Shown one piece after another: positions 21,354-44,916 of a stretch of 64,000 bases of DNA. The DNA is from an uncultured Gammaproteobacteria bacterium (lineage in GTDB: Bacteria > Pseudomonadota > Gammaproteobacteria > UBA9214). The stretch covers positions 32,001-96,000 of the forward strand of contig CAVYZN010000008.1 in assembly GCA_963773065.1 (NCBI GenBank). Reading direction: 5' to 3'. The position numbers and the translations under genes are program-made. Under the pieces are notes generated by a model, which saw only the letters and a program-made list of their open reading frames with translations, had not been told where the DNA came from and made no database searches. Position 1 is the stretch's first letter, and the number at the start of each line of letters is the position of its first letter.

Positions 21354-21405
21354 GAAAACATGGATGTTCAAGTGTTGCGTGAGGAGCGGGCATGCCCGGC
21401 GCGAC
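21354..21405 (+). repeat. Diverged copy of the 48-nt ANGGA-loop element
   Basis: AACATGGATGTT-CAAGT-GTTGCGTGAGG...GCC...GCGAC has the same layout as 32300-32347. Confidence 0.5.
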
Positions 21406-21430: not shown

Positions 21431-21453
21431 TTCGCGGGCAAGCCCGCTCCTAC
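21431..21453 (-). repeat. GTAG-type REP sequence
   Basis: Minus strand GTAGGAGCGGGCTTGCCCGCGAA; second partial copy at 31005-31021. Confidence 0.75.
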
Positions 21454-25005: not shown

Positions 25006-25884
25006 TCAGTTGGGTTTAAAGATCAGACGCAGATCGCGGAAATGCTTGAACAGGGCCGCATCCGGCGGCAGCGGCAAGGGGGACGCCTTGTAGACGGCCG
25101 TCTCGACGGAGCGATCGAATACCGGATCGCCGCTGCTGCGCACGATCTCCACGCGGGCGACATCCCCGCCGGGAATCAGGCTGACCTGCACCACGCAGGA
25201 CAGGCCCGCGGCGCTGCCCGGAGGACGCAGCCAACTGCGCTGAATCCGTTCCTGGATATAAGCAATGTATTCGTTCACGACGCCTTGGACGCGCCCCGCC
25301 TCCATGCGATCCTGCTCCGCGGCCAGTTGCGACTGCAGCGCCTGTTCCGACTCACGCCGCTGCGCTTCCTCCGCCTTGCGTTTCTGGTCCGACTCGGCCT
25401 TGCGCTTGGCCTCCAGATCGGCCTGACGCTTGCGCTCGGCTTCCGCCTTCTGCTTGGCCGCCTGCTCGGCTTTCTGCTTGGCCGCCTGCTCGGCCTGCTG
25501 CTTCGCCTCCAGCTCGGCCTGGCGCTTGCGTTCGGCTTCCGCTTTCTGTTTGGCCGCCTGCTCGGCTTTCTGCTTCGCTGCCTGCTCTGCCTGCTGCTTG
25601 CGCGCCGCCTCGGCCTGGCGCTGTTCCTCGGCCTGGCGTTGCTCCTCGAGCGCCGCCTGGCGCTTGGCTTCCTCGATCTTGCGCTGCTCCGCCTGCTTCT
25701 TTTCCGCCGCGGCATCCAGTTGCCGCTGATCGACCAGCTCGGCCGGTATCGGCACCTGCTGACCGGCGGGGCGGCTGATCTTGGGCGTCCAGTCGAGACT
25801 GAAAACCAGCAGCGCCAGCAGTATCAGGTGCATCAGCACCGCGTACATCACGGCGCGCGGATTCTCGCGTATGGCCTGCCACAT
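25006..25884 (-). CDS. tolA: TolA
   Basis: N-terminal TM with His, A/E/K/Q-rich helical repeats, C-terminal SSGDPVFDRS..AVYKASPLP. Confidence 0.92.
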   Translation of the reverse strand: MWQAIRENPRAVMYAVLMHLILLALLVFSLDWTPKISRPAGQQVPIPAELVDQRQLDAAAEKKQAEQRKIEEAKRQAALEEQRQAEEQRQAEAARKQQAEQAAKQKAEQAAKQKAEAERKRQAELEAKQQAEQAAKQKAEQAAKQKAEAERKRQADLEAKRKAESDQKRKAEEAQRRESEQALQSQLAAEQDRMEAGRVQGVVNEYIAYIQERIQRSWLRPPGSAAGLSCVVQVSLIPGGDVARVEIVRSSGDPVFDRSVETAVYKASPLPLPPDAALFKHFRDLRLIFKPN

Positions 25885-29795: not shown

Positions 29796-29879
29796 GCGGC
29801 CCGATCGCCCGTTTGTGGCGCTCTGTTGAAAATCATCACCAAACTATTTTCTCATGCCTCTCGTTGAACCGGTTTTTTC

Positions 29880-30092
29880 ACCGCAAAGACGCAAAGTTCG
29901 CAAAGAAATTCTTTAACAAAATCAATTAAGCAAGCTCTGATTAACTGAATGTATTTGTCATTGCAAGCTCAGCGCGGCAATCTGCAAGGTTGATATCCGC
30001 TCGCTTGGAGATTGCTTCGTCACTTCGTTCCTCGCAATGACGAATCAACTTGAGATTCCTTAATCAACTTTGCGACTTTGCGTCTTTGCGGT
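29880..30092. repeat. Three nested inverted-repeat elements
   Basis: Outer ACCGCAAAGACGCAAAG(T)TCGCAAAG / CTTTGCGACTTTGCGTCTTTGCGGT; middle TTAAGCAAGCTC / GAGATTCCTTAA; inner GTCATTGC..GCAATCT..AGATTGC..GCAATGAC (29957-30041). Confidence 0.8.
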
Positions 30093-31039: not shown

Positions 31040-31721
31040 AGCGCTATGTTTCCGGCAGGAAATAACAGACCTGGTCAGCCAACCGCTTCTGGACAAGCAC
31101 CAGGCCGGTGTGCGTGGTACTCAGCACGCATCGGCAACCCGCCTGGAGACGAGCCCCCCACGTGCGTGGTATCCGCGATGAGCTGGCCGCGCGCCCTCAA
31201 TCCGTGTTTCATGAGTTCACCACGCCGACGTTCACCCCGCTCAGCCGCCCATCAGCCGCCCGATACCCAGCGGGATGCGACCGGCGATCACACCCAGCGA
31301 CTGCCATCTGCGCCCACTGAGGTCGCCGCCCAGCAGGCCCTGTTCGCAGCTGCGACCGATCAGCCAGCGCAATCACCGGCGCTGCAGACGCTGGGCGACG
31401 GCGCTGCCCCCGGCCGGCTGCCCAGCAGCACGATGCGTCCCGGTGGTCAGGCCAGGCTCGTTTGCAAGGCGTGCAGGATCACCACACCGCCCAGACTGTG
31501 GCCGACCAGATGCAAACTGGTCCCGCAGGATTTGCCGTACCCTGTGGGCAGGCGCGGGCATTGTCCCGGACGTCCGGCGCAGGGACCGGTAGTTGAACAG
31601 CCGCGGCCGGTAGCCGCAACGGCGCAGCCGCCGCGCCAGCAGCACCAGTTCCAGCCTGCTCATCCAGGATACCGTGAACGAGTACGACGGTTTCGGGCAC
31701 TGTCGCGTTATCCGGTTTCAT
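31040..31721 (-). pseudogene. Small alpha/beta hydrolase (esterase/lipase-like), heavily frameshifted
   Basis: ETVVLVHG, HLVGHSLGG, GRIVLLGS, GVIAG motifs scattered across frames; may be poor consensus rather than true decay. Confidence 0.6.
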
Positions 31722-32190
31722 GCAGGGACGACGCGGCGGCAAGGGATACTGCATCAGTGGATTGGTACAAACCGCAGCAGCGCTTCCCGGTTGGACCAGG
31801 AAGCGGCCAGCCCGGCGGCCGCCGCGCGCGACAGCCAGCGATAGGAGCGGTGTTCGTGCGGATTCAGCCTCACCGCCGGTCGGCTGCGCATTCGACCCGG
31901 AATACATGTTCAAGGTTGGTCGCGGCATCGGGCGCGTAGCGCGCGCGCCAGGCGGGATGAAGGGTAAAGCGGATCGATGTCCGGCAGTCGACCGGCGCCG
32001 CATCAATGCCGGTTTCCTCCCGGAGTTCGCGTCGTGCGGCCTGCGGCGGCGTTCTCGCCCCAGTCCAGTGATCCCGTGACCGACTGCCAGAAATCGGCGG
32101 GTCCTGCCTTTGCAGCATCAGGACCTCGCCCATCGTGGTGTAGACGATGACCAAGACCGATTCGGGCCGTTTGTATTGCGGAGGTTCCAG
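31709..32190 (-). CDS. nudB: Dihydroneopterin triphosphate diphosphatase (Nudix), frameshifted
   Basis: YKRPESVLV, FWQSVTGS, AARRELREETG Nudix box, WRARYAP..NLEHVF; aspS-nudB-yebC-ruvC order. Confidence 0.85.
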
Positions 32191-32256
32191 AACGTCCTCA
32201 CTGCCCGGACACGGAGGGAATGAAATTGTCCCTGCACCCGCGCCCGAGCGGGTTAT

Positions 32257-32285
32257 TCACTTCTCACTTCTCACTTTTACACTTT
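32257..32285. repeat. Heptamer tandem repeat (TCACTTC x about 4)
   Basis: TCACTTC TCACTTC TCACTTT TACACTTT. Confidence 0.65.
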
Positions 32286-32299
32286 CCCGTGGATTCGAC

Positions 32300-32347
32300 G
32301 TACAGGGATGTACAAGTGTCGCGTGAGGCAGGAGGCCGGAAGCGACC
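32300..32347 (+). repeat. 48-nt ANGGA-loop structured element, intergenic copy
   Basis: GTACAGGGATGTACAAGTGTCGCGTGAGGCAGGAGGCCGGAAGCGACC; 37/48 ungapped identity to the clpB insert unit with compensatory stem changes. Confidence 0.8.
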
Positions 32348-32395
32348 CGTGGCCATAAATTCAAACTGGTCATGCAGAACGCAGCCGGTCAGCTC

Positions 32396-34171
<1,776 letters not shown>

Positions 34172-38509: not shown

Positions 38510-41210
<2,701 letters not shown>

Positions 41211-44781: not shown

Positions 44782-44916
44782 CTAGTGTTCATCCATAAAC
44801 ACCGTACTCACCGCAAAGACGCAAAGGACGCAGAGAAATATTTCAACGAAAACAATTAAACACTTTGCGTTCTTGGCGTCTTTGCGGTGAGTTTATTTCT
44901 TTATGGAGGCCACTAG
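44782..44916. repeat. Nested inverted-repeat element between convergent bamD and nadE
   Basis: Outer CTAGTGTTCATCCATAAA / TTTATGGAGGCCACTAG; inner ACTCACCGCAAAGACGCAAAGGACGCAGAG / CTTTGCGTTCTTGGCGTCTTTGCGGTGAGT. Confidence 0.8.

Follow-up and report, generated by a model that had tools for sequence, protein, structure and literature searches.

A 51-nt two-hairpin repeat with CsrA-like loops in the aspS-nudB spacer of an uncultured gammaproteobacterium is probably one copy of a mobile mini-repeat family

The spacer between aspS and a NUDIX hydrolase gene of an uncultured gammaproteobacterium contains two small hairpins whose loops resemble binding sites of the RNA-binding regulator CsrA, which raises the question of whether this is a regulatory RNA of the operon, a Csr-type binding module or something else. 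The window, i.e., the whole stretch of DNA that was analysed, comprises 64,000 nt (C8:32001-96000) of a source genome of 3.84 Mb in 33 contigs that is 91% complete. The spacer is 241 nt long and lies between the upstream gene aspS (32396..33891, - strand; Pfam tRNA-synt_2 and GAD) and the downstream NUDIX hydrolase ORF (31870..32154, - strand; Pfam NUDIX, 36.6 bits), called nudB in an earlier sequence-only reading. It holds a 51-nt unit at 32296..32346 on the + strand (nhmmer E=1.6e-12; cmsearch 70.7 bits), which reads CGAC-GTAC-AGGGAT-GTAC-AAGT-GTCGC-GTGA-GGC-AGGAG-GCC-GGAA-GCGAC and is missing from the orthologous site of the closest relative, G004. Hairpin 1 (32300-32313, +) is GTAC-AGGGAT-GTAC with the loop AGGGAT, and hairpin 2 (32318-32346, +) is closed by GTCGC and GCGAC around an inner stem GGC/GCC with the loop AGGAG; the letters agree with the two hairpins described in the sequence-only reading. 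Both loops carry GGA, and the exact match to the CsrA SELEX consensus, also pointed out by that reading, is present in the unit. Since both genes are on the - strand, the GGA strand of the unit (+) is antisense to aspS and to the NUDIX gene. No promoter-like or terminator-like sites were found at 31900-32600. One metatranscriptome run, available as contigs only, contained 9% of the sampled words; two of its contigs cross position 32324, maybe from other copies or organisms, and they reveal neither strand nor transcription. As a side observation, aspS consists of two overlapping ORFs (32396-32911 and 32905-33891) that jointly span tRNA-synt_2 and GAD, a split due to either a frameshift or an assembly error.

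Taken alone, the copy at 32296-32346 is within chance. The hairpin-1 word GTACAGGGATGTAC has two matches in the window at up to 3 mismatches, when 2.46 are expected, and the SELEX consensus RTACARGGATGT at up to 1 mismatch has one match versus 0.42 expected, with at least one match in 35 of 100 shuffles. The fold of this copy is no stabler than that of shuffled sequences (z = +0.28 for the + and -0.29 for the - strand). The family of copies, by comparison, exceeds chance. Iterated nhmmer (E<0.01) revealed 43 copies of the unit in the genome, arranged in 33 clusters, so that the "structured cassette" of the sequence-only reading is indeed a structured unit but not a locus-specific one. Four copies, the number claimed from the letters, fall within the window: the copy in the spacer, a tandem pair at 38919-39021 and a degenerate fourth copy (21358..21405, +; nhmmer E=7.2e-6, model positions 7-52) that lies between two - strand genes. 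The unit multiplies in tandem, with three head-to-tail abutting copies at C4:28971-29126 and two at C32:355494-355597, and it is also nested within other repeats.

In the alignment of the 32 full units from this genome, 91.4% of the cells are paired, 7 of 14 pairs are changed on both sides, and the covariation score was reached by none of 500 shuffles. RNAalifold, with the structure not supplied, returned the same two hairpins. GGA is kept in 30/32 units in loop 1 and in 26/32 in loop 2, and in loop 1 the positions directly before and after GGA vary freely. Strong covariation of the stems is thus combined with fixed A(N)GGA loops. A second, related module, with the hairpins CTGCA-GGGA-TGCAG and GGTAAC-GCAGGAGCA-GTTACC, gave 35 matches (E<0.01) and is often found as a 47-nt insert in the hairpin-2 loop, here and in other genomes. 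Arrays of unit and module parts contain up to 8-13 GGA per 128-268 nt, and some copies are enclosed by an outer stem whose arms are CGTCGGCCGCA..TGCGGCCGTCG.

Other repeats are found around these copies. A MITE-like shell of ~150 nt with the ends CATGCCGGGTAA..TTACCCGGCATG occurs in the source genome at C7:6200-6330, C15:28850-28990, C23:33550-33700 and elsewhere; its central stem encloses a unit, and its topology is like that of TwoAYGGAY RNAs. The degenerate unit at 21358-21405 is adjoined by a GTAG-type REP, GTAGGAGCGGGCTTGCCCGC, on the reverse strand (~21431-21453 of the window). A separate dispersed repeat, beginning TCACCGCAAAGACGCAAAG, is present at 29878-29932 and 44808-44862 of the window (84% alike), with 14-mers that are found up to 68 times genome-wide. 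The region 25339-25671 of the window contains 24-nt periodic repeats, nine copies in register, and is probably coding. Heptamer (CACTTCT) tandem repeats at 32258..32279 (+) form a separate repeat family adjoining the unit in the spacer; their word GAAGTGAGAAGTGA is found ~90 times in the genome, and the heptamer run is longer in G004.

Comparison with the closest relative revealed how the copy in the spacer is bounded. The flanks of the aspS-nudB spacer in G004 are 82-92% identical to the window, and the orthologous spacer lacks the unit, reading ..TTCCGTGGATT|CCGTGGCCAT.. and ..TTCCGTGGATT|CCGTGGCCATAAATTC.. around the empty site GGATT|CCGTGG. The 51 nt of the window fall between GGATT and CCGTGG with exact boundaries, apart from a one-base C ambiguity, and with no target duplication. 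In the relatives G001, G002 and G003, no unit aligns in this spacer. The direct repeat CCCGTGG noticed in the sequence-only reading is present at 32286-32292 and 32346-32352, but belongs to another repeat and preexists in G004: both copies stand side by side at the empty site, and they are therefore not a target duplication, which also rules out an insertion scar. The left CCCGTGG (32286..32292, +), outside the 51-nt unit, is part of a short repeat of TTCCGTG type that terminates another small repeat element on its right side; G004 reads ..TTCCGTGGATTCCGTGGCCAT.. unbroken, a matching end exists in G001, and the genome contains 15-16 occurrences of related words. The right CCCGTGG lies within CCGTGGCCAT (32346..32355, +), the terminal sequence of the host repeat, and its first C is common to the end of the unit. 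In G001, a host small repeat of this type has the ends ATGGCCACGG..CCGTGGCCAT with TTCCGTG/CACGGAA sub-repeats (L218:1780-2140, beside groEL), and the unit of the window is nested in the right end of a repeat of the ATGGCCACGG..CCGTGGCCAT type. The word CCGTGGCCAT also follows directly after units at C9:142147, C9:178315 and C9:187730.

The clpB gene presents a second series of filled and empty sites, with no unit in G002 and G010, one in G001 and G003, and two in the window. The unit in clpB of G001 and G003 is 51 nt long and adds 17 residues. In the window, the first tandem unit (38971..39021, -) measures 51 nt and the second (38919..38970, -; taken from the alignment) 52 nt, both sense to clpB. 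Because the two units add 103 nt, the clpB reading frame (38694-41210) is shifted; likeness to E. coli ClpB ends at the insert, and the listed ORF continues in the wrong frame to 38694. This frameshift is either real or an assembly error. The hairpin-1 stems of the clpB copies are GCGC/GCGC, and their second loop, ACGAC, has lost GGA. The contrast drawn in the sequence-only reading, antisense in the spacer, sense in clpB and without GGA in the second clpB loop, thus agrees with the sequence throughout. The array of this genome on the groEL side likewise has no close match at the orthologous site of G001. In 44 units of other genomes (among the matches listed), the left flank has G at -3 in 26/44, G at -2 in 26/44, and A (22) or G (14) at -1, while the right flank has C at +1 in 35/44. 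The unit is gained or lost whole, with exact boundaries, without target duplication and with a preference for GGA^C. Its dispersal and its exact presence or absence at orthologous sites support the mobility of the unit.

Loci in other genomes were gathered with a degenerate 22-nt pattern, which revealed at least 118 loci in named MAGs and isolates. Nearly all of these belong to Gammaproteobacteria, including Acidiferrobacterales, Lysobacterales, Chromatiales, Sedimenticola, a Solemya symbiont, Thiohalophilus, Luteimonas terrae (strain 4099, L136) and Gilvimarinus (sp. 2_MG-2023, L122). Other labels, i.e., Halobacteria, Methylomirabilis, Solirubrobacterales and Klebsiella pneumoniae, are borne by a few MAGs (L054, L075, L091, L109, L110, L117, L138), which may reflect mis-binning or transfer. 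Our covariance model R1 identified 127 units in 100 of the 118 loci among the matches listed, and in this set 93.2% of the cells are paired, double changes occur in 13 of 14 pairs, and none of 500 shuffles reached the observed covariation. The covariation of the stems around a kept GGA loop, first proposed from the comparison with the clpB copies, is therefore clear in both the 32 units of this genome and the 127 units of other genomes among the matches listed. The closing pair of hairpin 2, whose 3' partner lies outside the search pattern, is CG in 56 and UA in 56 of these 127 units (among the matches listed). Loop 2, which the pattern does not constrain, reads A-G-G-A at 86-97% per column and keeps GGA in 95/127 of the other-genome units among the matches listed.

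Within the same family, all 24 sampled genomes carry the unit, with at least 5-41 scored copies each, and a match was found in 1 of 16 genomes of other families in the same sample. Sampling the class evenly gave matches (E<=1e-6) in 23 of 150 further gammaproteobacterial families. Because only some candidates were scored per genome, the counts for the relatives and for the class are lower bounds. Among the relatives, the single-contig genome G010 has at least 16 units, no csrA match and a Y1_Tnp match below threshold.

The codon context of these loci revealed copies inside protein genes. The 200-nt flanks of other-genome loci were scored with a codon model trained on the source genome, and 117 loci were scorable among the matches listed. 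Coding sequence runs into both edges of the unit in the sense orientation at 22 of these 117 loci, and in the antisense orientation at 4 at most. At 22 loci (among the matches listed), one stop-free frame passes through flank, unit and flank. Pfam families were matched by 18 of the 22 read-through translations among the matches listed, i.e., ClpB-type AAA_2, TGT (3 loci), the tRNA-ligase anticodon domain (3 loci), GlnE, DnaE-type HHH_6, PheT B3_4, CysS, MnmA, homogentisate dioxygenase, DsbD_N, RHS and others. The usual read-through peptide is (G/D)DAQG(S/C)ASVAGGR(T/M)PGA(T/A). The unit contains no stop codon in any of the six frames; being in addition 17 codons long, it is tolerated inside genes. 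The source genome has two further sense copies within ORFs, and the ORF holding the copy at C11:313979 matched no Pfam family. In-gene copies score as high as intergenic copies, and this equal preservation is easier to reconcile with constraints on propagation than with a role at each individual site. At one residue of valS, a Thiodiazotropha MAG and a Sedimenticola MAG (L098, L144) have an insertion in common, with third-codon identity of 16/16 in the unit versus 61/124 in the flanks; this could be due to selection in place, to gene conversion or to repeated insertion.

Based on these results, the copy at 32296-32346 is probably one member of a family of non-autonomous 51/52-nt two-hairpin mobile mini-repeats that has landed in the end of another small repeat, and at the aspS-nudB site it is most likely neutral. 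We infer that propagation of a copy would require both folding of its single strand and recognition by a putative trans-acting enzyme, possibly of the HUH/Y1 type. This need for folding and recognition would be what keeps the stems covarying and the A(N)GGA loops fixed, and the likeness to a CsrA site would be a by-product, or a secondary property of those copies that are transcribed.

The reading that competes most directly assigns the loops to CsrA itself. From the sequence, it is doubtful that the unit acts as a CsrA/RsmA-binding module in which two GGA loops ~25 nt apart would bind one CsrA dimer per transcribed unit. That the family forms a distributed transposable sponge, or a set of portable regulatory sites in the manner of mobile RsmZ/CsrB or TwoAYGGAY RNAs, appears unlikely as well, and so does the fuller version, a transposable bidentate CsrA/RsmA site of 51 nt that would spread Csr-type control, buffer free CsrA and be under nucleotide-level selection even in ORFs, as hinted by valS. 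Several features of the loops would suit such a role. Loop 1 with its closing pairs gives C-A-N-G-G-A-W-G within (A/G)CANGGAWGU, i.e., the SELEX consensus quoted in the sequence-only reading, which presumably also corresponds to the RsmE consensus (A/U)CANGGANG(U/A); the only variable positions of loop 1 are the two N positions of this RsmE consensus. Five of the six exact RTACARGGATGT matches in the genome, and 34 of 770 matches to WCANGGANGW, fall within the 2,081 bases of the family. Loop 2 keeps its GGA even though it is outside the search pattern, and sub-hairpins duplicate with compensating stems while GGA is retained. The four hairpin types of the family all have GGA in the loop. On the GGA strand, G-U pairs outnumber A-C mismatches (28 vs 14), and the third-codon-position conservation in valS also favours a role of the nucleotides. 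The host encodes csrA (one gene), and searches of the genome with the CsrB (RF00018), RsmZ (RF00166) and RsmY (RF00195) models gave nothing above cut-off. An equal idea has been put forward in a 2026 preprint for the multi-copy TwoAYGGAY RNAs (10.64898/2026.09.22.753630).

The orientation of the units, however, argues against this role. Counted over co-directional contexts, it is about random (23 sense vs 20 antisense; 10 and 13 in the source genome, 13 and 7 at the 29 loci of five relatives), so the bias towards a transcribed GGA strand that a Csr function would lead one to look for is lacking. At other-genome loci where only the flanking gene was scorable, roughly 16 were antisense and 7 sense (a rough count from 200-nt flanks among the matches listed). 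Where the neighbouring genes converge, the unit has the sense orientation relative to the nearer one at 7 of 7 loci of the relatives and, judged by eye, in 4 of 5 clear cases in the source genome, which hints at a preference for 3'-UTRs and at nothing further. The copy at 32296-32346 is itself antisense to aspS-nudB, many copies lie within ORFs, where ribosomes would unfold the hairpins, and no array is kept at a fixed locus. In addition, csrA was not found in 5 of 24 unit-bearing relatives, including the single-contig G010; of 16 families lacking the unit, 14 have csrA.

An origin from a Csr sRNA, the other half of the original proposal, has no counterpart in the genome either, where no source sRNA gene for the unit was found. 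The array on the groEL side (C6:18882-19009), which is followed by a strong terminator, was considered as such a gene and rejected because it is not kept in G001; one sub-cut-off RsmY match (14.5 bits) overlaps this array and another (24.7 bits) lies inside a gene. No exact match to a GacA-type box was found in the genome, and there is no dense GGA run around the two one-mismatch sites. The densest GGA windows of the genome were likewise rejected as sRNAs, being polypurine tracts. Separately, we observed that G/A-only tracts of several hundred bases occur outside the window at C19:73790-74370, C15:11550-12110 and C28:78200-78470, that the C19 tract, flanked on either side by a copy of GGTCCAGGGCC, appears to interrupt a gene, and that 14-mers of A (394) and of C (195) are very frequent in the genome; these tracts may be assembly artefacts. 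The unit shares with the CsrB/RsmY/RsmZ sponges the A(N)GGA-loop hairpins and a spacing suiting CsrA dimers, but it has no fixed locus, promoter or terminator, occurs in both orientations and inside ORFs, and matches none of their models above cut-off. Of the earlier proposal of a mobile repeat carrying CsrA modules, mobility stands on the G004 and clpB sites, and what points to CsrA is likeness of motif, which does not support binding at the copy at 32296-32346.

We consider it quite improbable that the units are classical REP/REPIN sequences, i.e., repetitive extragenic palindromes moved by a REP-associated tyrosine transposase (RAYT). Like REP/BIME elements as generally described, the units are short, structured, dispersed, with covarying stems and no target duplication, and Y1_Tnp is commoner in genomes with the unit in the class sample (20/23 unit-positive vs 69/127 unit-negative genomes; Fisher p=0.005), a comparison confounded by kinship and genome size and whose negative group includes the unpublished genome G165. 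The sequence-only reading had suggested looking for a transposase alongside the repeat, and this co-occurrence is not matched by adjacency: none of the 10 Y1_Tnp genes of the source genome is flanked by units, a single unit within 1.5 kb of any of them is ~1.1 kb away, and no Y1_Tnp lies next to units in the five relatives. No mobilising enzyme was thus found near units in the source genome or in these relatives, and G010, with its copies, has a Y1 match of only 21 bits, below cut-off. A conserved GTAG head is lacking: GTAG is present in some copies but varies, and ahead of the closing GCGAC the units read GGA, GTA, ATA, GAA or GGG. A separate GTAG-type REP family with ~20 copies at up to 3 mismatches exists in the source genome. 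Head-to-tail tandems and copies inside genes are also unlike the habit of REPINs.

Other types of small mobile elements agree with the unit in part. Like the PATEs derived from IS200/IS605, it has hairpins near both ends, appears to insert 3' of a short motif without duplication and may be lost exactly; unlike them, it is far smaller, and neither matching tnpA ends nor a parent IS was found. A replication-strand bias is expected of IS200/IS605 elements, and the orientation of the units relative to GC skew (17 vs 14) shows none. As for MITEs, there is no duplication at empty or filled sites, and the unit ends CGAYG.. and ..GCGAC are not inverted repeats.

A closer structural relative is the TwoAYGGAY RNA (Rfam RF01731), a motif described by Weinberg et al. 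(2010; PMC2864571). Li et al. (2026; 10.64898/2026.09.22.753630) describe two-hairpin AYGGAY RNAs as multi-copy in Pseudomonadota, with flanking repeats, mobile-looking and possibly acting as Csr/Rsm sponges. That the unit is simply a diverged TwoAYGGAY RNA is nevertheless very unlikely. In both, two hairpins follow each other and carry A(Y)GGA(Y)-like loops, and the preprint gives for TwoAYGGAY tens of copies per genome, short flanking repeats, a mobile-like expansion and a proposed Csr/Rsm binding, all of which recall the unit; copies between outer-stem arms have a topology like that of TwoAYGGAY. The model, on the other hand, gave no match (gathering cut-off 43 bits) in the whole genome at E<=1, at 31500-33200 at E<=10 or at the eight array loci at E<=1, although RF01731 matches 7 of 151 other genomes of the class; conversely, R1 misses the true TwoAYGGAY matches at 10 loci of seven other genomes. 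TwoAYGGAY RNAs are longer (115-170 nt), and the examples compared here have 115-130 nt and a long basal stem, whereas the unit has 51 nt and no basal stem of its own, having one only where it sits inside the outer repeat. Loop 1 of the unit is ANGGAW, with a pyrimidine (U or C) at N in 40 of the first 100 rows when the 127 units are aligned (among the matches listed), and loop 2 is AGGAW, without Y. The unit also inserts in frame into genes, and sections 8 and 11 of the preprint report no such insertion for TwoAYGGAY. Elsewhere in Rfam 15, no relevant match was found at the locus or at the eight array loci, those at L172 belonging to a terminator region beside groEL, so the unit is not an already catalogued repeat there. 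Literature searches by CsrA and repeat topics or by the sequence words of the unit did not find it; the TwoAYGGAY variants in figs. S25-S27 of the preprint's supplement, outside this comparison, may include it.

The insertion into genes resembles that of the Rickettsia palindromic elements (RPEs), which are described as in-frame insertions in numerous unrelated housekeeping genes, translated there as a conserved peptide (PMC10969869). The unit is likewise a small palindromic repeat found in frame in unrelated protein genes and read through, at 22 loci among the matches listed, but it has 51 nt versus the ~150 bp given for RPEs, belongs to Gammaproteobacteria, probably has no likeness to them in sequence and is also intergenic and in tandem. 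By the model comparison and the sequence context, the unit would be a family beside TwoAYGGAY, not a member of it, combined with RPE-like insertion into genes. The idea of a locus-specific cis-regulatory RNA of the aspS-nudB operon, for which the position in the 241-nt spacer speaks, is refuted by absence at orthologous sites, the G004 spacer lacking the unit and those of G001, G002 and G003 aligning none, and with 43 copies in the genome and a structured GGA strand antisense to the operon it has practically no remaining probability.

With the mobile mini-repeat as the preferred reading, the family brings the RPE-like "selfish DNA inside proteins" to free-living Gammaproteobacteria and in a much smaller form, a unit of 17 codons translated as part of ClpB, Tgt, tRNA ligases, GlnE and a DnaE-type polymerase domain. 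In the gene calls of MAGs it produces apparent insertions and frameshifts, and it is best masked in searches for structured RNAs. It is also a second multi-copy family, alongside TwoAYGGAY, with hairpin loops that copy the CsrA/RsmA consensus. If CsrA does not bind the units, they are a caution that the demands of a mobile element can suffice to produce covarying stems and a perfect SELEX match; if CsrA does bind them, a global post-transcriptional regulon would be subject to rewiring by mobile DNA.
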